64,000 nucleotides of DNA from the sequence record MK373794.1, one strand, 5' to 3'. Position numbers and translations under genes: made by a program. The DNA comes from Escherichia phage vB_EcoS_HdK1. A model generated the notes under the pieces. It did not search any database, was not told where the DNA came from, and saw nothing but the letters and a program-made list of their open reading frames with translations. This document shows positions 1-64,000 of this stretch, piece after piece (the first letter of the stretch is position 1; each line of letters opens with the position of its first letter).

Positions 1-105
1 TTTATATAAATACACACATATACACATTTTTACCTTATTTTTCATGCACTTACCTCCTTTCATTTCGTATATTAAGCGACAATATACGAGCAATATAAGA
101 AATAT

Positions 106-119
106 TTGTTGCGCAACAA
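106..119. repeat. Perfect 14-bp palindrome TTGTTGCGCAACAA in the non-coding control region (second copy at 60798..60811)
   Basis: Read directly from the sequence; lies in the ~1.07-kb non-coding region spanning 60336..60692 and 1..678. Confidence 0.6.
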
Positions 120-617
120 CGAGGCGCTCACAAGCTCGCGCACGCGCATAATGCGGGCACGCGGTCTAACACAAAAGAAAATTGAATTGCAAGCGATTTT
201 TGCTGAGGTAACTCTCGAAGCGAAAGCGATTTGCGAGTTTGAAATTTTGTAGCCCGAAAACGATTCTATTTTATGGTATAAATGTCGGATTTTTCGGTGA
301 AAGGTGGCTTTTCGGTGAGGTTGGGTGGCTGGGATCGGTGTAACTGGTAGCCCATAAAGCGAAAATAGCCGCGAAAACGGGGCACGCAGCGCGATTAAAT
401 GGTTGGATCAGTGTAAGGGTGGCGGTGAGGGGGCGAAAATGCCGCAAAATCGCTTACAGGGATGCAGGGAGTGGGCCGCTGTAAGGGCGTATAAGGCGAT
501 TAAATTGGAGTCTATGGTAATGTATGGAAGATGGATTTAGGCTCTTAGAGCGCGAATGGTGGAGCTATGGGTGAGGAATATGTGGTCAGCAGGGTAGCGC
601 GGGAGGTTATGCAGGTA

Positions 618-660
618 CAAAAACGAAAGCGCCCCGTTGGACTTCAACAGGGCGCGGATT
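618..660 (-). terminator. Rho-independent terminator ending the leftward early operon
   Basis: GC-rich inverted repeat GCGCCC..GGGCGC directly downstream of the stop of the 679..927 gene; on the minus strand it is followed by a T-rich tract. Confidence 0.55.
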
Positions 661-678
661 GTATAATGCTTTTAGAAG

Positions 679-927
679 TTATTTACTAGTTAATAATACC
701 GCCCAGGTATTATCTGGAAGCGTACCAACTCCGAGTATCTTAAACTGAAGCGACTTGTTCTGCATGTTGTAGTTGTCGAGTAACTCCTGGGCAGCCGCAG
801 CAGCGTTCGCTTCACCGTTCAGGTTGTAGTCGTTTGCAGTTATTGCACACATACCGAGACCGACCGCTTTGAAGCGCATACCTTTGGATTGAGTCGGTGC
901 AAGTGCTTTAACATGGATAGCGTTCAT
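679..927 (-). CDS. Hypothetical early protein, 82 aa (paralog family A)
   Basis: ORF track; shares an AAAA(Q/E)EL..F(K/E)ILG/SGG..P(D)..(W/Y)A pattern with the 1458..1703 product. Confidence 0.5.
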   Translation of the reverse strand: MNAIHVKALAPTQSKGMRFKAVGLGMCAITANDYNLNGEANAAAAAQELLDNYNMQNKSLQFKILGVGTLPDNTWAVLLTSK

Positions 928-956
928 ATTATTTATCTCCGTTACAATTTGAAAGG

Positions 957-1220
957 TTAGCAGTTTTTTAACAGGTTGATGAAGCCCACCAGCGTGGACG
1001 CTGTTGCAACCAGGCGGCCCATAGTATGCAGTTCCGCGTAAACTTTACCGTCGTCAAACACAGTTAAATAAACGTTAAGACCATTGCAACGGACGCGATA
1101 TTTGCGCGAGTTATTACCAAAAGTTTCCAGCTCTGCGGTGATAGTCGCAAGATTAGCTATACGTTTGCCGATAATGCGGCGAGTGATAGTGGACTGGTTT
1201 AATACTGTAGACATAATCAT
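957..1220 (-). CDS. Hypothetical early protein, 87 aa (paralog family B)
   Basis: ORF track; N-terminal motif STITRRIIGKRI matches SQITKRIIGKRL of the 2529..2835 product; AGAGG ribosome-binding site upstream. Confidence 0.5.
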   Translation of the reverse strand: MIMSTVLNQSTITRRIIGKRIANLATITAELETFGNNSRKYRVRCNGLNVYLTVFDDGKVYAELHTMGRLVATASTLVGFINLLKNC

Positions 1221-1245
1221 TTCCTCTGTTAACTATGCGAAGTGC

Positions 1246-1274
1246 ATATTATTGCCCACTGTTACTATGGGCAA
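1246..1274 (-). promoter_or_regulatory. Sigma70-like promoter (minus strand: -35 TTGCCC, 17-bp spacer, -10 TAATAT) overlapped by an inverted repeat (candidate operator)
   Basis: Hexamers and spacing read from the reverse complement; inverted repeat TTGCCCA-N9-TGGGCAA at 1252..1274 covers the -35 box and spacer; lies 26 bp upstream of the 957..1220 start. Confidence 0.45.
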
Positions 1275-1282
1275 TGTATATG

Positions 1283-1447
1283 TCACTCAGCGGACACATA
1301 TTCTAACGCTTCTGATAGTGTAGCGAAGTAACCATCGCTCACCAGATTAATAGCGTACTCAAGTTGATCGCGGGTCAGGTTGCGAAACTTGTTACGGATG
1401 TGATAGCAACGACCGCGATAAATAACCTGGAAATAGTTGCGTTCCAT
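1283..1447 (-). CDS. Hypothetical small protein, 54 aa
   Basis: Internal ATG of the 1283..1603 track ORF preceded by AAGGGG; the longer track ORF would overlap the neighbouring gene. Confidence 0.4.
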   Translation of the reverse strand: MERNYFQVIYRGRCYHIRNKFRNLTRDQLEYAINLVSDGYFATLSEALEYVSAE

Positions 1448-1457
1448 AATTATCCCC

Positions 1458-1703
1458 TTATGCAACGATGAACGCGTAACCGCTTTGATCCGGGAGTTCA
1501 CCACCGGAAAGAATTTCAAACTCAACGCCCGCTTTATCGCTGAACTTTTTGATAAGCTCTTCCGCTGCGGCGCGGTGGTTGCCGTAAACACCAAGATCGT
1601 CACGCCACGTGATAGTCAAGGAGCCGTTCCAACCTGTTGCTTTTACGCGCGGGTTACGGGTGGCAGTCGGGTTCATGAATTTTGTGATGATAGCTTGAGC
1701 CAT
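1458..1703 (-). CDS. Hypothetical early protein, 81 aa (paralog family A)
   Basis: ORF track; paralogous to the 679..927 product. Confidence 0.5.
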   Translation of the reverse strand: MAQAIITKFMNPTATRNPRVKATGWNGSLTITWRDDLGVYGNHRAAAEELIKKFSDKAGVEFEILSGGELPDQSGYAFIVA

Positions 1704-1708
1704 GATAA

Positions 1709-1894
1709 TTACTCCGGTAAAATTACAGTGACGTTAATATTTGCAAGGCGAGCGCACTCGCGGAAACCTTTTACATAAGCATCCATTTCGTCATAGGATG
1801 CGAAAGTTGCGTCCGGGACTGGTCCGTTGTTAATATTCACGCAATATTCGTGTTCGTCCAGGTCAACCCAACAAGTCAGAACGATAGTTTCCAT
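1709..1894 (-). CDS. Hypothetical small protein, about 61 aa
   Basis: Internal ATG (METIVL..) preceded by GGAGGG; acidic, Cys-containing. Confidence 0.4.
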   Translation of the reverse strand: METIVLTCWVDLDEHEYCVNINNGPVPDATFASYDEMDAYVKGFRECARLANINVTVILPE

Positions 1895-1972
1895 ATTATT
1901 TGCCCTCCGTATAATACAGACCCGCAACTATTGGAGCTCCGAAAACTAAGAAAGCTAATAAATAGAACATAA

Positions 1973-2452
1973 TTAGTTACCCCCTTTATTGTTGAGCCCG
2001 TTGAATTTACGCCATGCGTAGAATTCAATCGTTGCATTATTAATATTCCAACCATTAGCTTTCGCAAGGTCACGGACGTTACCAATAGTTGGCACACCAT
2101 CAGGCAACATATTATCCAGGGCATTCCAAACGTCTGCGCATTTACCTTTAATCGGGCGACGAACCCCGTTGCGCGTTTCGCTGCGCGTTTTGCTCTTGGC
2201 TGGAGCGACCGGAGCTTGTTGTGTGGTCACTTCCACGACAGTCGCTTTATCAGCTTCCACCAGATCGCTAGCTGCCTTATTAACCGCGCTTTCGCTGTAC
2301 CAGTAGCGACCACCGTCTTCGTGCGGTTCCTGGTGAATAAAGCTATTTGCTGTCGCAGTGTCCACATCCAGAACCTTTTTTAAGGCACGGCGAGCGTTAG
2401 ACATAGTGGCGAAGAAGCGAGCGTCTTTTGCTACGCGAGTGATAGTAACCAT
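1973..2452 (-). CDS. Hypothetical early protein, about 159 aa
   Basis: ORF track; start placed at the ATG preceded by GGAGAT; no recognisable catalytic motif. Confidence 0.45.
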   Translation of the reverse strand: MVTITRVAKDARFFATMSNARRALKKVLDVDTATANSFIHQEPHEDGGRYWYSESAVNKAASDLVEADKATVVEVTTQQAPVAPAKSKTRSETRNGVRRPIKGKCADVWNALDNMLPDGVPTIGNVRDLAKANGWNINNATIEFYAWRKFNGLNNKGGN

Positions 2453-2492
2453 TGTGAATATCTCCATGTTGTTCTAGCGGATTGCTAGTGGG

Positions 2493-2513
2493 AGCCCACT
2501 GTTACAATGGGCA
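2493..2513. repeat. Second copy of the conserved inverted-repeat element GCCCACTGTTAC(A/T)ATGGGCAA
   Basis: Near-identical to 1252..1274; both sit in intergenic gaps between leftward early genes. Confidence 0.55.
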
Positions 2514-2528
2514 ACCATTAGCACGCTA

Positions 2529-2835
2529 TTATTGTTGAATAGCTTTATCTATCATTGCGATGAAGCAGAACACAGACCAAAGGCTATTCGCTTGGCATAC
2601 TGCGCGACCATACATTACGCTATAAGAGCTGACAGTACCGTCCTCGTTAATGCGAATATATAACGCGGTGCTGGAATACTTTTCGTTGCCCGGGAGCATT
2701 ACTAAATACTCGTCGAAACCCCAATCCCCGTCGACTTTTTCCGCAGTAAGGCCCAGTTGGTGCAGTCGCTTGCCAATAATGCGCTTAGTAATCTGAGATT
2801 GGGACATGGAACGCGGTAAGTAGATAATGGACATA
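2529..2835 (-). CDS. Hypothetical early protein, about 102 aa (paralog family B)
   Basis: ORF track; start placed at the ATG preceded by AAGGGAG; paralogous to the 957..1220 product. Confidence 0.5.
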
Positions 2836-2909
2836 ATGCAATCTCCCTTCGGGTGAGGCGGGCGCGGAACCCGTGTCCCGCTTAACAACCCCCTTAACCC
2901 TACACAGTT

Positions 2910-2938
2910 ATAGTATGACAACGGGGTATCAGATGCAA
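2910..2938 (-). promoter_or_regulatory. Sigma70-like early promoter for the leftward operon (minus strand: -35 TTGCAT, 17 bp, -10 TACTAT)
   Basis: Hexamers and spacing read from the reverse complement, about 75 bp upstream of the first leftward gene. Confidence 0.4.
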
Positions 2939-3014
2939 CTATTATCTGCAATATTTTAGAACTTTTTTAGTTGTGTTTCATAATAATAACATCCGGGACT
3001 ATGCGGTAGATGGT

Positions 3015-3088
3015 GTGCCGGAAATACCAGGTAGCGCGAGCGTGCCGAAAATACCAGGTAACAGCACGCGCCGAACATACCAGGTAGC
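3015..3088. repeat. Three tandem ~27-bp iteron-like repeats (core ATACCAGGTA) followed by an AT-rich tract; candidate origin or protein-binding array (second copy 63707..63780)
   Basis: GTGCCGGAAATACCAGGTAGC / GTGCCGAAAATACCAGGTAAC / CGCCGAACATACCAGGTAGC read directly; AT-rich stretch at about 3130..3230. Confidence 0.55.
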
Positions 3089-3476
3089 ACATACATAGAC
3101 AGCACATAGTGGGCAGGTGGATAGTAACAGATGCAATTATACTGGACGGTACAGTATAGTCATGTAATAGATAGCATACTAATTAAATAAAAAATAATAA
3201 CGCGTGTAACAATAAACAACGTTACAGTAGAGCGCGCAACAGTCACATGACGTAACAATCACCTCACTGACGATCACGGGACGTTATAGTAACGCCGCGG
3301 GGCGGCTCTTAGATCTCTGCCAAGGATTCTAGACGTAAACATTGAATCGCCACTAGACTATTTACATCACAACCTCACTCCTCACACAATAATACATAGA
3401 ATTTAAATCCGTATATAAATACTCGAGATAGTATCTACATATTCGAGGATGAGTGCTCAATCATTGTAGGTTATAA

Positions 3477-43379: not shown

Positions 43380-43475
43380 GATTTAAATCCTCACAGTGTG
43401 GTTATTGGTTGTGAACTACGTTCTAAGTGGTTGCACTATAACCCCTCTAAAAGAACTATGCAATATTTTAGTTAA

Positions 43476-53783: not shown

Positions 53784-53981
53784 TTAAAAGAACGTACCAG
53801 TTAACACATACAGCACAGCGTCGCGCAGTGTTGGTAACAAAGGTGAACAATTAGGAACGCTGTAGAATTTACGTGATCCCACTTTAACACTCACTATTGT
53901 AATAGAACGTTTATTGCGCTCTACTGCGTAGAGACCACCACCGAGACGACGGACTTTATATAGAGGTTGATGCTTTTGCAT
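53784..53981 (-). CDS. Hypothetical small protein, 65 aa
   Basis: ORF track. Confidence 0.3.
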   Translation of the reverse strand: MQKHQPLYKVRRLGGGLYAVERNKRSITIVSVKVGSRKFYSVPNCSPLLPTLRDAVLYVLTGTFF

Positions 53982-53998: not shown

Positions 53999-54277
53999 TT
54001 ATTTGCTGACACGTATGGCTCTACCTGTTAAGAAGGTGTATCCACAGTGCCGCATTAAGTCACGTTCTTCTATTACACTTCGTAACTGGCGTGACAGCGT
54101 TTCATAGTAAGGACGGACTTCGTTCTTACTTATAGCTAAAGCATAGGCGAACAGTTGTTCCGAGTCAATACGATTAGACTTGATTCTTTTGATCGCCTGC
54201 TCAATTCCTGGGAACTCCTCATCCTGGTATAGAGCACCGTACACAATTTTAATAGCTGCTAGATTGTAACTGGACAT
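53999..54277 (-). CDS. Hypothetical protein, 92 aa
   Basis: ORF track. Confidence 0.4.
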   Translation of the reverse strand: MSSYNLAAIKIVYGALYQDEEFPGIEQAIKRIKSNRIDSEQLFAYALAISKNEVRPYYETLSRQLRSVIEERDLMRHCGYTFLTGRAIRVSK

Positions 54278-54312
54278 TTGACCCTCGGACGTAAAATAAT
54301 TCTTGATACCTA

Positions 54313-54340
54313 TTGCATTCCTAAGGAAATGCTCTATAGT
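54313..54340 (+). promoter_or_regulatory. Sigma70-like promoter (TTGCAT, 16 bp, TATAGT) for the plus-strand moron
   Basis: Near-consensus hexamers about 35 bp upstream of the 54376 start codon. Confidence 0.45.
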
Positions 54341-54375
54341 ATGTATTATACAGTTTGTAAGCGGAGGAACACAAA

Positions 54376-54606
54376 ATGACTCACCAAGATCTTATAAAAA
54401 GAAACATCAGAACTGCAATGAACAAGTCAGAGGAATTCTCACATAACTGTACTGATGGTACTCATAAAATTAGATACGAATATATGGGATCCTCAACTGT
54501 GGTTAAGTTTGAGAAAGATGAGTATCACGTTGGAGATTTTTCAACACCAGATTACGACGAGATGTTTGAATACGTTGTATGTGGGTTCTTAAAATTGCAC
54601 GAATAA
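54376..54606 (+). CDS. Hypothetical small protein, 76 aa; lone plus-strand gene inside the leftward replication block (moron-like)
   Basis: GGAGG ribosome-binding site, own promoter and own terminator; opposite orientation to all neighbours. Confidence 0.45.
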   Translation: MTHQDLIKRNIRTAMNKSEEFSHNCTDGTHKIRYEYMGSSTVVKFEKDEYHVGDFSTPDYDEMFEYVVCGFLKLHE

Positions 54607-54610
54607 TATA

Positions 54611-54636
54611 ATGGGCGCATATAGCGCCCATTTTTT
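54611..54636. terminator. Terminator after the plus-strand moron (also downstream of the primase-like gene end)
   Basis: ATGGGCGC..GCGCCCAT stem followed by TTTTTT. Confidence 0.6.
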
Positions 54637-57201
54637 ATAACTTAATAACTTCGTTCATTCTCTCAATATCTACCAAATAACACTTCATTCTCGGTGGTGT
54701 AAACTCTGCGCCGAAGAAATTTGAAAAGTCCATTGGCCTCATCTCGGTAAGAACTTCCATAGACATCAAACCATAGATTGTATTGTCTATGACCTGTAGG
54801 ATGTTGTCATTTCTTGTCTGTTTAAAAGCCTTGAACTGGCGACATACTGTGCATAGATCACTCCTTGTGACAATAAATGCGTCCTTAAACATGGGAAACC
54901 GTTTATATACACCAGCTTTAACTTCACCATCCAAGAACTTCTTAATGGAGTTCAGCATTATCTTCTCACGACTTGTACTGTCCGTAGAACCAATCTGCCC
55001 ACTGTTACGCTTCTCTAAGAAACGCTCGTTACCCTGATCGATAAATGACTCAGCCCAACGATAATGTTCCATAGTGACAACAGGACGCTCACTGTTATCT
55101 GCAACAGCAAGAAGAGAAGCTATACGCAATACCTTCAACGCCTTCCTTGTGTACATCTGACGAATTACTTCGTCTTGCACCTGCTCACCATCATTGCCGC
55201 TGTTCAGGAACTTCGCAACAATATTATCAAGATTATCAAACGCTTCGTGTACCTCTGCTTCCATTTCAACATAACACGGAGCAGTCCCTGACATAATACG
55301 CACAGCTTGTTTATAGATAGCTCCAATAGTGCGCAGTATTGCTTCTGGATATTCCAGGAGCATACTCTTATTCATCAATGGGCGGTTAGCTGTACATTCC
55401 CATGCGATAATACGGGACATGAAACCACTCGACATCATGCGGTCATCTACGTTCCCGTAAAATTCATCTGGTGTTGTTTCACCTGCAAAACTATACGCCT
55501 TAACCTTACCGCCAGCAGTCGTATTATCTTTACTAGAGTGCTTTGAACCACCAGAGAAAGCATAGAAATGCCCCTTGTCATAAAGGGAAAGCATTTCATC
55601 CATAATGTCTTTAGCTTTACCGACTTCCATCTTACCGTTACGGAAAAAATGCACCGACTTCAGTCTTATAGTTAATGGATGAGCCACAAGACATAACGGA
55701 CGTATCCATTATGACATCCTTGCGCAATGCAGCATCAGACGCATAGGTACTTGTATCCAAGACACGTTCGATACCAAATATCTGCTGACCGTCTTGACCG
55801 CCATAATTGGATACTTGAGAAAAAAAAGAATAGTTTCAATGTTGGAGCGAAACGCTTCTTTACCAATACCAGAACGTGCAATTAGTACAAAGTAGTTATT
55901 CAAACCACTTCGTGTGACTGTGTTCCACGCCTTACCGCACATACCACTAAATAAAGCAAGCGCAGACAGAATACTAATGTCTTTAATAGGCAACAAGCTC
56001 GCTTTATACATATTACGCGCAACCTCGCCCATAAAGCCCGGAGGCCAAGCCAAACCGTCTGCCTGCTCTTCAGTGTAATTACCATCTGTAGTCAACACTT
56101 CTTCAGGTGGGCGTTCTGGTGTAGTTGCTTGACGTAGTTTTTCCGTGCGCTCTATAGCTGCATTAACGTTATTCTGAACTATCTGCATAAGTCCCATAGA
56201 TTTAACATGGGCATCGTAGCGATAGTTGCGAATCATTCTATCCAGGTGGTACGGACGTTTAATTTTTTCACCAGGCATACGACGGGGAATCATCGTAACG
56301 GCTACTCATTGGTGAATACATGAATAGACGTCTTACCTGGAAATTGTACTTACTCTTAAAGCAAAGAAAGTCAATTAATGCAAATTCTGCTTCAGACTGA
56401 GAAGGGAAACAACGTTCACCGATTAGAAGTATCAACTTCTTCAGCTCTCCAACGACCCTCCCATAGCTGCTTAAACAATGTTCCGTTTTCTTGTTCGCAC
56501 AACTGAATATAGACATCCTGGTCTTCCATTGCATATGGGTCGTTACTAAAATCTTCTTCAGTAAGTTCCAGCATTTGGAAGCCATCAGACTCATTAATCT
56601 CACTCATCTCAGACATAAGTTGGATGAATGAGATTAGCGATATACCCTTCGCTTTCACTGCCTGGAGCACCAGACACAGTGCGCGGGAGTAAAGTAACAT
56701 CCCAGTGATCCCCTGTACAGATAATAAAACGATACTGGGAATACACTTCCACACCGTCACGGCGCTTACCAGCCTGAGGGGATGGAATAAATCCATGTGT
56801 GCAACCCATCACCGCTTCTGGAAATTTCCGTATAGCTATGGAAACGATTCAACAATCTTCTTATATCGCTCACCAGCAACTTTCTTTTCCATTTCAGACA
56901 TGGTATCTTTAATGTCCATGTCGATACAACAGAACGGGTCACTTGGAAGTAGATAGAAACCTAAACGCAAGTTATGACCAATCTCGTTATAATAACGAAC
57001 GCAGCGTTCAGCATCTTCAAAAGACATAAGTAAATGCAGGTTAGACGGTTTCTTATCATTACCGTCTTTACGAAGTGGGACCATATCCCCTAAATCATCG
57101 TCCCATACATAAGGTTGTTTTTCTGATGATGTACCCGGATGGAAACCGCAGACAGCCCACTGTTCGTATTGTTTAATTTCTTGAGGAAAAAGTTCCAGCA
57201 T
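54635..57201 (-). CDS. Putative bifunctional DNA primase-polymerase (AEP-type N-terminal domain plus C-terminal domain), fragmented into at least five ORFs by apparent frameshifts
   Basis: Track ORFs 54635..55687, 55709..56293, 56416..56796 and 56836..57201 plus alternate-frame readings form one continuous coding region; AEP-like motifs CIDMD and RSGDGLH; frame changes at plus-strand A6 (55645..55650) and A8 (55821..55828) runs. Confidence 0.45.
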
Positions 57202-57210
57202 GTTATTACC

Positions 57211-57447
57211 TTAAAACGTAGCGGGATTAATTTCAAATAACGAACGTGATGGTACAACATCAAAGTTGACATCTACCAGCTTAAAAGAATTCGTGTAAAC
57301 ACACCATGTACCGACTTTTTCATTAAAGACGGGCTTGTCATTATTAAATGCGTACACGCAACCATCAGAATCTGTTGCAATATATCTTGTGTCTTTTGGT
57401 ACTTCTACATCTGAACCATAATAGTGAACGATAATTAAATCTGACAT
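57211..57447 (-). CDS. Hypothetical protein, 78 aa
   Basis: ORF track. Confidence 0.4.
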   Translation of the reverse strand: MSDLIIVHYYGSDVEVPKDTRYIATDSDGCVYAFNNDKPVFNEKVGTWCVYTNSFKLVDVNFDVVPSRSLFEINPATF

Positions 57448-57520
57448 GTTATTCTCCTACGATCCATTAGGACACACATAGTATATACTGATGGATCGCA
57501 GGGGGCTAACCCCCTGCAAA

Positions 57521-57919
57521 TTATGGTACTAAGACCCAACGACAGGTGATAGGTTTACACGTTACTTGTTCTTTAGAGATAGTAATTCTGTCCCTGAACA
57601 TTATTCTCGGATAAAAGTATTGCATGTAATTATCCGAATCCGTTTTACATTGTGCATTCAATATGCGGGAGCTAACAATAAACTTTAAATCCGCCCAATC
57701 CTCCATAGAATCAGAAAAAGATAGGATACGCCCATTTCCACGAACTTTAGCCGTTGACTCAGCTGGTAGTCTGTGGTTAATATCACACGGTAAATCTAAA
57801 GCAGGTAGCTTCCCTTTGATTAATTTATCGGTATTAAAAGAGCCAATTTCTAAAGTATGAATATTCTGACCTTTAATTGGTTCTTCAAACTTAACATCAA
57901 CAACAAGTTTGACTAGCAT
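57521..57919 (-). CDS. Hypothetical protein, 132 aa
   Basis: ORF track. Confidence 0.4.
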   Translation of the reverse strand: MLVKLVVDVKFEEPIKGQNIHTLEIGSFNTDKLIKGKLPALDLPCDINHRLPAESTAKVRGNGRILSFSDSMEDWADLKFIVSSRILNAQCKTDSDNYMQYFYPRIMFRDRITISKEQVTCKPITCRWVLVP

Positions 57920-57933
57920 AGCTTACCCTATAA

Positions 57934-58203
57934 TCACCATAAAATTTCTACACTTTCAGTATCCAGCTGACTTAATGGTTGCTTATATGAGATTGTATAT
58001 CCAAATGATACCAGTTGTTCAGTTACCTTTCTCATTACAGGACGTGCATTAGGACTACCGATTTCACTATATGGCTTTTTAAATAATTTAATATGATCCC
58101 TGCCATCTAGAGATGCTTTAGTAATCCATTTATCCAAATCATCAAGATATGCACTGGTATCCAGACTTTCACTATTTGTACGGGCTTCTTGTGCTGTAAT
58201 CAC
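57934..58203 (-). CDS. Hypothetical protein, 89 aa
   Basis: ORF track. Confidence 0.4.
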   Translation of the reverse strand: MITAQEARTNSESLDTSAYLDDLDKWITKASLDGRDHIKLFKKPYSEIGSPNARPVMRKVTEQLVSFGYTISYKQPLSQLDTESVEILW

Positions 58204-60414: not shown

Positions 60415-60545
60415 TTGCAATACAATATTGATATATTTTGTTTTTGCATTGCAATGTTTTTGTATTGCAAAAATTACAACAGTCTGAAGGTGAGAAATTG
60501 CAAATTTATAAAGATTGGTGAAAAAATGCACAATTTATAAAGATT
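60415..60545. promoter_or_regulatory. Early control region with four ATTGCAA/TTGCAAT half-site motifs (one perfect palindrome ATTGCAAT at 60448..60455) and a 14-bp direct repeat AATTTATAAAGATT (60503..60516 and 60532..60545)
   Basis: Motifs read directly from the sequence in the AT-rich region upstream of the leftward replication operon. Confidence 0.45.
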
Positions 60546-61309
60546 CAGCAATATACGAAACGGCGAAGCGAAGTGTATGAAAAATAAGGGAAAATTTCGA
60601 GAGTTGGGAGGTTTGTAGTGATTTATATTATTTATAAAGGGGTCTCGTGGGGTCGTCAGTAGACAACTCAAAAATAAAAAATCTTTATAAAATTTATATA
60701 AATACACACATATACACATTTTTACCTTATTTTTCATGCACTTACCTCCTTTCATTTCGTATATTAAGCGACAATATACGAGCAATATAAGAAATATTTG
60801 TTGCGCAACAACGAGGCGCTCACAAGCTCGCGCACGCGCATAATGCGGGCACGCGGTCTAACACAAAAGAAAATTGAATTGCAAGCGATTTTTGCTGAGG
60901 TAACTCTCGAAGCGAAAGCGATTTGCGAGTTTGAAATTTTGTAGCCCGAAAACGATTCTATTTTATGGTATAAATGTCGGATTTTTCGGTGAAAGGTGGC
61001 TTTTCGGTGAGGTTGGGTGGCTGGGATCGGTGTAACTGGTAGCCCATAAAGCGAAAATAGCCGCGAAAACGGGGCACGCAGCGCGATTAAATGGTTGGAT
61101 CAGTGTAAGGGTGGCGGTGAGGGGGCGAAAATGCCGCAAAATCGCTTACAGGGATGCAGGGAGTGGGCCGCTGTAAGGGCGTATAAGGCGATTAAATTGG
61201 AGTCTATGGTAATGTATGGAAGATGGATTTAGGCTCTTAGAGCGCGAATGGTGGAGCTATGGGTGAGGAATATGTGGTCAGCAGGGTAGCGCGGGAGGTT
61301 ATGCAGGTA

Positions 61310-61352
61310 CAAAAACGAAAGCGCCCCGTTGGACTTCAACAGGGCGCGGATT
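61310..61352 (-). terminator. Second copy of the early-operon terminator (same as 618..660)
   Basis: Within the terminal duplication. Confidence 0.55.
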
Positions 61353-61370
61353 GTATAATGCTTTTAGAAG

Positions 61371-61619
61371 TTATTTACTAGTTAATAATACCGCCCAGGT
61401 ATTATCTGGAAGCGTACCAACTCCGAGTATCTTAAACTGAAGCGACTTGTTCTGCATGTTGTAGTTGTCGAGTAACTCCTGGGCAGCCGCAGCAGCGTTC
61501 GCTTCACCGTTCAGGTTGTAGTCGTTTGCAGTTATTGCACACATACCGAGACCGACCGCTTTGAAGCGCATACCTTTGGATTGAGTCGGTGCAAGTGCTT
61601 TAACATGGATAGCGTTCAT
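61371..61619 (-). CDS. Duplicate of the 679..927 gene (paralog family A)
   Basis: Identical translation in the ORF track. Confidence 0.5.
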   Translation of the reverse strand: MNAIHVKALAPTQSKGMRFKAVGLGMCAITANDYNLNGEANAAAAAQELLDNYNMQNKSLQFKILGVGTLPDNTWAVLLTSK

Positions 61620-61648
61620 ATTATTTATCTCCGTTACAATTTGAAAGG

Positions 61649-61912
61649 TTAGCAGTTTTTTAACAGGTTGATGAAGCCCACCAGCGTGGACGCTGTTGCA
61701 ACCAGGCGGCCCATAGTATGCAGTTCCGCGTAAACTTTACCGTCGTCAAACACAGTTAAATAAACGTTAAGACCATTGCAACGGACGCGATATTTGCGCG
61801 AGTTATTACCAAAAGTTTCCAGCTCTGCGGTGATAGTCGCAAGATTAGCTATACGTTTGCCGATAATGCGGCGAGTGATAGTGGACTGGTTTAATACTGT
61901 AGACATAATCAT
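61649..61912 (-). CDS. Duplicate of the 957..1220 gene (paralog family B)
   Basis: Identical translation in the ORF track. Confidence 0.5.
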   Translation of the reverse strand: MIMSTVLNQSTITRRIIGKRIANLATITAELETFGNNSRKYRVRCNGLNVYLTVFDDGKVYAELHTMGRLVATASTLVGFINLLKNC

Positions 61913-61974
61913 TTCCTCTGTTAACTATGCGAAGTGCATATTATTGCCCACTGTTACTATGGGCAATGTATATG

Positions 61975-62139
61975 TCACTCAGCGGACACATATTCTAACG
62001 CTTCTGATAGTGTAGCGAAGTAACCATCGCTCACCAGATTAATAGCGTACTCAAGTTGATCGCGGGTCAGGTTGCGAAACTTGTTACGGATGTGATAGCA
62101 ACGACCGCGATAAATAACCTGGAAATAGTTGCGTTCCAT
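61975..62139 (-). CDS. Duplicate of the 1283..1447 gene
   Basis: Within the terminal duplication. Confidence 0.4.
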   Translation of the reverse strand: MERNYFQVIYRGRCYHIRNKFRNLTRDQLEYAINLVSDGYFATLSEALEYVSAE

Positions 62140-62149
62140 AATTATCCCC

Positions 62150-62395
62150 TTATGCAACGATGAACGCGTAACCGCTTTGATCCGGGAGTTCACCACCGGA
62201 AAGAATTTCAAACTCAACGCCCGCTTTATCGCTGAACTTTTTGATAAGCTCTTCCGCTGCGGCGCGGTGGTTGCCGTAAACACCAAGATCGTCACGCCAC
62301 GTGATAGTCAAGGAGCCGTTCCAACCTGTTGCTTTTACGCGCGGGTTACGGGTGGCAGTCGGGTTCATGAATTTTGTGATGATAGCTTGAGCCAT
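62150..62395 (-). CDS. Duplicate of the 1458..1703 gene
   Basis: Identical translation in the ORF track. Confidence 0.5.
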   Translation of the reverse strand: MAQAIITKFMNPTATRNPRVKATGWNGSLTITWRDDLGVYGNHRAAAEELIKKFSDKAGVEFEILSGGELPDQSGYAFIVA

Positions 62396-62400
62396 GATAA

Positions 62401-62586
62401 TTACTCCGGTAAAATTACAGTGACGTTAATATTTGCAAGGCGAGCGCACTCGCGGAAACCTTTTACATAAGCATCCATTTCGTCATAGGATGCGAAAGTT
62501 GCGTCCGGGACTGGTCCGTTGTTAATATTCACGCAATATTCGTGTTCGTCCAGGTCAACCCAACAAGTCAGAACGATAGTTTCCAT
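62401..62586 (-). CDS. Duplicate of the 1709..1894 gene
   Basis: Within the terminal duplication. Confidence 0.4.
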   Translation of the reverse strand: METIVLTCWVDLDEHEYCVNINNGPVPDATFASYDEMDAYVKGFRECARLANINVTVILPE

Positions 62587-62664
62587 ATTATTTGCCCTCC
62601 GTATAATACAGACCCGCAACTATTGGAGCTCCGAAAACTAAGAAAGCTAATAAATAGAACATAA

Positions 62665-63144
62665 TTAGTTACCCCCTTTATTGTTGAGCCCGTTGAATTT
62701 ACGCCATGCGTAGAATTCAATCGTTGCATTATTAATATTCCAACCATTAGCTTTCGCAAGGTCACGGACGTTACCAATAGTTGGCACACCATCAGGCAAC
62801 ATATTATCCAGGGCATTCCAAACGTCTGCGCATTTACCTTTAATCGGGCGACGAACCCCGTTGCGCGTTTCGCTGCGCGTTTTGCTCTTGGCTGGAGCGA
62901 CCGGAGCTTGTTGTGTGGTCACTTCCACGACAGTCGCTTTATCAGCTTCCACCAGATCGCTAGCTGCCTTATTAACCGCGCTTTCGCTGTACCAGTAGCG
63001 ACCACCGTCTTCGTGCGGTTCCTGGTGAATAAAGCTATTTGCTGTCGCAGTGTCCACATCCAGAACCTTTTTTAAGGCACGGCGAGCGTTAGACATAGTG
63101 GCGAAGAAGCGAGCGTCTTTTGCTACGCGAGTGATAGTAACCAT
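62665..63144 (-). CDS. Duplicate of the 1973..2452 gene
   Basis: Identical translation in the ORF track. Confidence 0.45.
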   Translation of the reverse strand: MVTITRVAKDARFFATMSNARRALKKVLDVDTATANSFIHQEPHEDGGRYWYSESAVNKAASDLVEADKATVVEVTTQQAPVAPAKSKTRSETRNGVRRPIKGKCADVWNALDNMLPDGVPTIGNVRDLAKANGWNINNATIEFYAWRKFNGLNNKGGN

Positions 63145-63220
63145 TGTGAATATCTCCATGTTGTTCTAGCGGATTGCTAGTGGGAGCCCACTGTTACAAT
63201 GGGCAACCATTAGCACGCTA

Positions 63221-63527
63221 TTATTGTTGAATAGCTTTATCTATCATTGCGATGAAGCAGAACACAGACCAAAGGCTATTCGCTTGGCATACTGCGCGAC
63301 CATACATTACGCTATAAGAGCTGACAGTACCGTCCTCGTTAATGCGAATATATAACGCGGTGCTGGAATACTTTTCGTTGCCCGGGAGCATTACTAAATA
63401 CTCGTCGAAACCCCAATCCCCGTCGACTTTTTCCGCAGTAAGGCCCAGTTGGTGCAGTCGCTTGCCAATAATGCGCTTAGTAATCTGAGATTGGGACATG
63501 GAACGCGGTAAGTAGATAATGGACATA
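63221..63527 (-). CDS. Duplicate of the 2529..2835 gene
   Basis: Identical translation in the ORF track. Confidence 0.5.
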
Positions 63528-63706
63528 ATGCAATCTCCCTTCGGGTGAGGCGGGCGCGGAACCCGTGTCCCGCTTAACAACCCCCTTAACCCTACACAGT
63601 TATAGTATGACAACGGGGTATCAGATGCAACTATTATCTGCAATATTTTAGAACTTTTTTAGTTGTGTTTCATAATAATAACATCCGGGACTATGCGGTA
63701 GATGGT

Positions 63707-63780
63707 GTGCCGGAAATACCAGGTAGCGCGAGCGTGCCGAAAATACCAGGTAACAGCACGCGCCGAACATACCAGGTAGC
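63707..63780. repeat. Second copy of the three tandem iteron-like repeats (same as 3015..3088)
   Basis: Within the terminal duplication. Confidence 0.55.
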
Positions 63781-64000
63781 ACATACATAGACAGCACATA
63801 GTGGGCAGGTGGATAGTAACAGATGCAATTATACTGGACGGTACAGTATAGTCATGTAATAGATAGCATACTAATTAAATAAAAAATAATAACGCGTGTA
63901 ACAATAAACAACGTTACAGTAGAGCGCGCAACAGTCACATGACGTAACAATCACCTCACTGACGATCACGGGACGTTATAGTAACGCCGCGGGGCGGCTC

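Follow-up and report, generated by a model that had tools for sequence, protein, structure and literature searches.

A conserved rightward gene with a putative head-on promoter pair in the leftward replication block of a JenK1-like Nonagvirus

Morons are autonomous insertions made of a promoter, a gene and a terminator, a class that Juhala, Hendrix and colleagues reportedly defined in work on lambdoid phages. Overlapping promoters that face each other form another described arrangement, found in IS10 (pIN and pOUT), coliphage 186 (pR and pL) and phage P2 (Pe and Pc). The locus considered here, a single gene for a 76-aa protein that reads rightward inside a leftward block, resembles both of these in part, and its product resembles small phage proteins such as T7 Gp1.2, T7 Gp2, T4 AsiA and the anti-CRISPRs.

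As in the IS10, 186 and P2 pairs, the predicted promoters lie on opposite strands, at the junction of two gene sets, and their transcripts are predicted to overlap at the 5' ends. Unlike those pairs, the locus has -10 boxes that stand only 3-4 bp apart, with a predicted overlap of about 10 nt against their 36-62 bp; its promoters are putative, and it has no recognisable DNA-binding repressor on either side, no integrase and no known lysogeny module. The likeness to Gp1.2, Gp2, AsiA and the anti-CRISPRs lies in small size (74-97 aa across the family), in negative charge and in a compact alpha+beta fold; further shared traits are early expression, which is likely here, and dispensability under laboratory conditions. 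What the locus has in common with morons is a single small gene with a sigma-70-type promoter and an intrinsic terminator, set within a unidirectional block; the gene is also lower in G+C than the genome, as are nearby early genes. Unlike a moron, it keeps a fixed position over deep divergence, is not patchy among close relatives, is strictly paired with a neighbouring gene and shares its terminator with a primase gene; and in a virulent phage no benefit to a host through prophage expression would be expected. The phage group has been described as virulent or pseudolysogenic (PMC4276943).

The whole stretch of DNA that was analysed, called the window below, is 64,000 nt long. Its segment 53500-55700 matches 17 phage records, all of them Nonagvirus (Queuovirinae); the closest is Enterobacteria phage JenK1 at 98.6% identity, and over the locus itself (54278-54640, 363 bp) the window and JenK1 are 100% identical. 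Judged by these matches, the window is a JenK1-like Nonagvirus genome, that is, the genome of an E. coli siphophage of the Queuovirinae. The sequence repeats with a period of 60,692 bases, positions 1-3308 recurring as 60693-64000, so the window is one genome running past its own end, and features near either end appear twice.

The preliminary description of this DNA had singled out the gene as the only rightward one in its block, and this holds among the annotated genes of its relatives. The 76-aa protein is identical (100%) to the product of JenK1 CDS AKA61097, which is the only plus-strand CDS among the block's 45 features, and the homologous gene is likewise the sole rightward CDS in the stretch examined in each of HdSG1 and 9g. 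The promoter hexamers, the GGAGG, the 76-aa ORF and the hairpin with T6 were each located in the sequence as claimed (Table 1).

Table 1. Features of the locus. Coordinates are those of the window; P_R and P_L are the putative rightward and leftward promoters, and lineages are Nonagvirus and six further phage lineages.
Feature	Position	Strand	Remarks
92-aa basic helical protein gene (phrog_17339)	53999..54277	-	divergent partner; RBS GAGGG at 54282-54286 (-)
A/T-rich tract TAAAATAATTC	54295..54305	+	8-18 nt upstream of the rightward -35; tract at the same place in 7/7 lineages
P_R -35, TTGCAT	54313..54318	+	TTGCA(A/T) in 7/7 divergent lineages; invariant in 12 Nonagvirus genomes
P_R -10, TATAGT	54335..54340	+	position of TATAnT invariant in 7/7 lineages
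P_L -10-like, TATAAT (inverted)	54345..54350	-	TAT..T kept in 7/7 lineages, exactly 25 nt from the ATG
RBS, GGAGG	54363..54367	+	8 nt before the ATG; GGA invariant across lineages
P_L candidate -35, TTGTGT	54369..54374	-	adjoins the ATG of the 76-aa ORF; CAAAATG invariant in 7/7 lineages
76-aa ORF	54376..54606	+	ATG 54376, stop TAA 54604-54606; phrog_17131, homologue of 9g_00024
Bidirectional intrinsic terminator	54610..54636	both	9-bp stem, 6 G-C pairs, 5-nt loop, plus-strand T6
Primase-helicase gene, DUF3987 type	54635..57201	-	convergent; stop codon overlaps the T-run

The pattern of substitution indicates that the 76-aa ORF is a real protein-coding gene under purifying selection. Among 12 distinct Nonagvirus genomes the variable columns number 12, 14 and 35 at codon positions 1, 2 and 3, pairwise dN/dS lies between 0.06 and 0.38 with dS reaching 0.77 (against phage SE1), and alleles differ in length at one place only, through an indel of 6 nt that keeps the frame and falls within a variable loop. 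The protein matches phrog_17131 over its full length (residues 1-76 of 76, E = 2e-55), and distant members of the family match the same entry at 1e-5 to 6e-4; phrog_17131 is an already catalogued hypothetical family without functional annotation. A chance open frame with coincidental signals would fit a promoter match that, taken in a single sequence, is no better than random. The probability of this reading is negligible, as it is refuted by the codon-position pattern, the dN/dS values and the in-frame indels, by the homologues that profile searches place in the same context, and by a confident structure model. A non-coding RNA reading was also rejected because no Rfam family reached threshold; the only Rfam matches were below it and were driven by the terminator.

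Comparison across close relatives, suggested in the preliminary description as a check, found the ORF disrupted in just one of the 12 Nonagvirus genomes and intact in the other 11. The disrupted copy is that of FritzHoffmann, a plaque-forming BASEL phage, in which one additional G in the GGG run at 54486-54488 shifts the frame. Further independent frameshift alleles are present in the metagenomic contigs P0005 and P0007. The FritzHoffmann frameshift implies that the 76-aa protein is dispensable for plaque growth on E. coli K-12. The site of this frameshift recurs in P0007 on a different allele background. Two short out-of-frame ORFs are annotated at this place in the records of both FritzHoffmann (L007, 626-930) and ChristophMerian (L008, 626-915); the ORF of ChristophMerian is in fact intact, and that record is mis-annotated.

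The gene stands at the same position in all 12 Nonagvirus genomes, and six other phage lineages (K9PH25C2, L016, L017, L019, L021 and L023) have homologues of 25-40% identity in the equivalent place. A word-indexed search did not find copies beyond Nonagvirus. With tblastn, copies of about 31% identity were found in Klebsiella phage K9PH25C2 and in Ec1-ASingh; a tblastn search that started from the distant member P0043 brought in one more record, Klebsiella phage vB_Kpn2-P2, and the Klebsiella form used as query added 33 more clusters, nearly all from contigs of about 60 kb. An exhaustive search of 1.84 billion representatives with a 35-sequence profile returned no more than about twelve proteins, all small (74-97 aa), and scans of IMG/VR for distant family members gave no match. 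Wherever the context can be read (L014, L015, L016, L017/18, L019/20, L021/22 and L023) the layout is common to all lineages: a leftward gene with an N4_GP8 domain, a leftward gene of 88-108 aa, a spacer of 93-99 bp, the small rightward gene, the hairpin, and a leftward primase-helicase gene of the DUF3987 type.

This distribution bears on the idea, raised in the preliminary description, that the unit is a laterally acquired accessory gene. In its full form this is the reading of a moron whose anti-defence or host-modulation product is made regardless of the early programme. It would account for the gene's own promoter and terminator, for a product that is small and acidic like many phage inhibitors, for its dispensability in the laboratory phage FritzHoffmann, and for an ORF with 35.1% G+C in a genome with 44.0%, which puts it in the 1.3rd percentile of 231-bp windows. 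Against it, the nearby early genes at 57211-58203 are equally low, at 35-36% G+C. The same partner accompanies the gene every time, and the unit was not found in E. coli genomes, in plasmids or in other phage groups. A position conserved at such deep divergence, in every Nonagvirus genome and in six lineages beyond, argues that the gene is not a recent moron. The lateral-origin claim was not upheld: in the Nonagvirus clade the cassette is an ancestral component of the replication module, inherited by vertical descent, and not a recent insertion, and the moron reading as a whole is unlikely.

The slot that the gene occupies is older than its present occupant. The primase of the Seuratvirus Skure is related (29% identity), and directly after it a gene for a 74-aa protein reads backward (L024, 3430-3900). 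This gene has a promoter-like site of its own and a bidirectional hairpin, and its RBS context, GGAGGATTACAAAATG, is the same as that of the 76-aa gene. The encoded protein falls in phrog_22269, has an AP2-domain match below the Pfam threshold (E = 0.006) and shows no similarity to the 76-aa family that hhalign could detect (probability 0.1%). The 92-aa partner is absent from Skure, and the leftward -10 box there is preceded by a full TTGCAT -35 at 16 nt. In the Craquatrovirus PSTCR7 the primase is followed by a backward gene for an acidic 59-aa protein, with TTGCAC-17-TATATT and a hairpin, and again hhalign detected no similarity between this protein and the 76-aa family. Stenotrophomonas phage Siara has a related primase and no backward gene, and no backward gene is annotated after the primase of Vibrio phage VpKK5. 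The proteins in the Seuratvirus and Craquatrovirus slots, with no detectable similarity to the 76-aa family, suggest that the cargo was possibly exchanged at least once in the distant past, and such exchange at inter-genus range may be the one element of the moron idea that survives.

Some further observations were made in Skure. The paired inverted -10 motif, as TATGCT-GTA-AGTATA, is retained about 100 nt upstream of the 74-aa gene. The leftward operon seems to open with a hydrophobic peptide of about 24 aa, whose ORF has a good RBS and is not annotated.

The promoter of the 76-aa gene had been called near-consensus. The TTGCAT-16-TATAGT arrangement is indeed present, but the label was overstated, since P_R agrees with the sigma-70 consensus at 8 of 12 positions and TTGCAT has only its TTG in common with TTGACA. 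A score of 8/12 falls short of the scan threshold; with 9/12 as the limit, the region gives 30 sites against the 27 expected from shuffled sequence. P_R is made credible by two other observations: TTGCAW-16/17-TATAnT stands at a constant distance from the ATG in seven lineages with otherwise diverged spacers, and the same pattern occurs three times in the window against 0.4 expected. The distance between -35 and -10 is 16 nt in the window and 16-17 nt across the seven lineages. Standard sigma-70 geometry predicts a start at about 54345-54348. The A/T-rich tract upstream may be an UP-like element, and would also form part of the 5' leader of the leftward mRNA.

The hairpin with T6 that had been placed immediately after the ORF is present too, but it is not private to the ORF, as it also serves the convergent primase-helicase gene. 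It has the form AATGGGCGC-ATATA-GCGCCCATT at 54610-54632, and the T6 run covers 54631-54636. The plus-strand hairpin, with T6 as its tail, has a deltaG of -15.7 kcal/mol, and the minus-strand hairpin, with ATATTATT as its tail, one of -16.8 kcal/mol. The stop codon of the primase-helicase gene (54635-54637) lies no more than 3 nt past the hairpin and overlaps the T-run. A hairpin separates the two stop codons in 7/7 lineages, and in the HdSG1 and SP8 records it is already annotated as a terminator. As a unit of promoter, RBS, ORF and terminator the cassette is self-contained, as first described, with its motifs kept in all seven lineages.

The 76-aa protein is acidic (pI 5.4, charge -5), as are all 19 family members tested, with pI 4.0-5.4 and charges of -5 to -10. 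AlphaFold, given a 35-sequence alignment, predicted its structure with pLDDT 84 and pTM 0.68: a helix at residues 3-14, five strands, and a second helix at 60-75. The conserved positions form two clusters, NI[KR]xxMNKxE within the N-terminal helix and DYDEMF where the C-terminal helix begins, and the beta-hairpin region varies in sequence and length. Pfam gave no significant match for the protein alone or for the 19 family members, PADLOC and a PDB profile search each returned 0 matches for the protein, and with the model as query Foldseek found nothing significant in the PDB (best E = 0.5) and only the protein's own family in BFVD. The 9g record carries the remark "similar with transcription elongation factors", which none of the searches supported.

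For a moron with an anti-defence product, a likeness to characterised anti-defence or inhibitor proteins would be welcome, and none was significant by sequence or structure (Gp1.2, Acr, PsiB and others); for T7 Gp1.2 the hhalign probability was 0.1%. Searches with the 76-aa and 92-aa proteins detected no DNA-binding domain in either of them. Acidity together with the lack of a DNA-binding fold argues against a repressor and for a protein-binding role, and the 76-aa protein is most likely a protein-binding modulator. Going by co-occurrence and opposite charge alone, the prime candidate for its partner is the co-inherited basic 92-aa neighbour; the alternative is a host protein.

The genes to the left of the spacer raise the matter of a second promoter. 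Since the primase operon stops at a good terminator, the leftward genes downstream of it need a promoter of their own. The best candidate is P_L, a putative leftward promoter that would restart the downstream operon from a start at about 54337. It scores 9/12, one above P_R, but its -35 (TTGTGT, with an 18-nt spacer) is weak. The bidirectional terminator may be leaky, in which case P_L would not be strictly required, and the invariant CAAAATG could be a translation-initiation context instead of a P_L -35.

Across the seven lineages the spacer has one order: A/T-rich tract, TTGCA(A/T), 16-17 nt, TATAnT, 3-4 nt, AnnATA, 25 nt that include GGA, and CAAAATG. Read on the minus strand, the AnnATA element is TATAAT, TATAAT, TATGCT, TATAGT, TATACT, TATGCT and TATACT in the seven lineages, and the inverted -10 boxes are 4 bp apart in the window and 3 bp apart in the other lineages. 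Each predicted start falls within the -10 region of the other promoter, which would exclude the opening of both at the same time, and P_R and P_L are in this sense predicted to be face-to-face, mutually exclusive promoters.

The paired boxes could instead be one palindromic operator. The corresponding reading is that the cassette encodes a DNA-binding regulator, Cro- or Cox-like, which acts on the TATAnT/AnnATA element and balances both promoters. A divergent gene pair with overlapping promoter elements and a central near-palindrome would suit such a protein, and so would the near-invariance of the spacer: just 3 of its 98 columns are variable within Nonagvirus, whereas the genes on either side vary at 25-53% of their third codon positions, which implies that the entire spacer is constrained, beyond the needs of the hexamers themselves. 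The weak, sub-threshold AP2 likeness of the Seuratvirus slot protein and the pseudolysogeny-like behaviour of phage 9g (PMC4276943) point the same way. What weighs against a regulator is the acidity of every family member, and also the manner in which the element varies. The half-sites change independently and keep only the -10 consensus positions, and since the positions that define a -10 box are fixed and the inner bases are free, two separate -10 elements fit better than one symmetric operator. We consider the regulator very unlikely.

The same spacer figures bear on another reading, in which the locus works mainly in cis: the promoter and terminator would insulate the leftward operons or activate a nearby origin, and the ORF would be secondary cargo. 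Within Nonagvirus 3% of spacer columns vary against 29% of ORF columns, frameshifts are tolerated in the ORF while the spacer stays intact, and in three genera the slot holds proteins that have no detectable similarity to each other; the locus is A+T-rich and adjoins the primase-helicase gene. Set against this, the protein is under purifying selection, with NIKRxMNKxExYS and DYDEMF kept across lineages at 25% identity, and Siara has the related primase without a backward gene. Cumulative GC skew is featureless at 54.3 kb and has its extremes at about 34 kb and about 60 kb, which are changes of gene orientation, and no iterons or repeat arrays were found. A mainly cis-acting role is improbable to much the same degree as the regulator, and a replication origin at the 76-aa locus is unsupported, as GC skew tracks gene orientation only and iterons were not found.

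An origin, or the main divergent early and late promoters, would more plausibly lie at 60501-60692. The composition shifts abruptly there (31% G+C, GC skew +0.40), where the leftward and rightward blocks diverge, and the minimum of cumulative GC skew falls in this segment. According to the genome paper on phage 9g (PMC4276943), which does not discuss the 76-aa ORF, transcription falls into two large regions whose divergent promoters lie at the end of the genome. A literature search found no paper that names the ORF, its locus tags or transcript maps of Nonagvirus. Elsewhere in the leftward block, a promoter-like TTGCAT-17-TATAGT lies at 43435-43463 on the minus strand, inside a 96-bp intergenic gap, and terminator-like hairpins lie on the same strand at 52387-52368, 47449-47424 and 42530-42508. 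This site and these hairpins suggest that several sigma-70 operons in series, and not a single long transcript, make up the "early region".

The divergent neighbour is as constant as the gene itself. The 76-aa gene and the partner gene co-occur in the same 20 phage records, and the partner proteins of the seven lineages are all homologous (phmmer E 8e-33 to 1e-15) and basic or neutral. The 92-aa protein is predicted to be all-helical; its AlphaFold model, made from a 5-sequence alignment, has pLDDT 49 and is unusable. Several GenBank and RefSeq records, and PHROGs, call this protein a "protease" or a "putative cysteine protease (calpain)". The label was rejected as unsupported, the Pfam and PDB profile matches being spurious.

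Next to the partner gene, a 65-aa ORF at 53784-53981 on the minus strand matches Pfam PF25713, "Bacteriophage N4 DNA replication inhibitor" gp8, above the curated cut-off (E = 1.5e-18). It is called "hypothetical" in all Nonagvirus records examined, and three of the divergent lineages, L016, L019 and L021, have a PF25713 domain at the same position. On the other side of the cassette, the primase-helicase gene is one 2,550-bp ORF in JenK1, HdSG1 and other relatives. In the window about ten small indels, spread from about 55640 to 56880 and several of them in homopolymer runs, break it up and leave four ORFs, of 350, 194, 126 and 121 aa. These indels look like sequencing or assembly errors, or else mark a degraded copy.

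The reading we favour, tentatively and with slightly less than even confidence, is an ancestral, independently transcribed cassette in which P_R competes with P_L and the acidic product binds another protein. Host sigma-70 RNA polymerase would initiate at P_R (54313-54340), probably early in infection, and the resulting mRNA of about 290 nt would be translated into the 76-aa acidic protein. This transcript would end at the hairpin that also stops the oncoming primase-helicase transcript. On the other strand P_L would restart the next leftward operon, which encodes the 92-aa basic protein, the N4-gp8-like putative inhibitor of host replication and further small genes. Only one of the facing polymerases could be bound at a time, so that initiation at the cassette would compete with initiation at the operon, and the acidic protein would act through binding, either to the 92-aa neighbour or to a host protein.

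A broader version of the favoured competition between P_R and P_L, which we think quite unlikely, is that Queuovirinae-like siphophages share a conserved backward-gene slot whose head-on promoters form an exclusive toggle, with the acidic protein on one side and the operon for the basic protein and the gp8-like protein on the other. If true, the toggle would act as a switch in development or in the takeover of the host, a kind of control not known from virulent phages, and it would offer a possible basis for the metastable pseudolysogeny of phage 9g.

Nonagviruses are models for 7-deazaguanine DNA modification and part of the BASEL collection. A backward gene that is fixed through deep divergence, with a constant partner, a near-invariant control region and a gp8-like inhibitor gene nearby, marks this locus as a candidate regulatory node. 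Should the promoters prove not to be exclusive, the gene would encode one more small phage protein without an assigned function. If they are mutually exclusive, the locus would be a compact natural case of promoter competition controlling a lytic programme, and the acidic protein would be a candidate for a new inhibitor or modulator.
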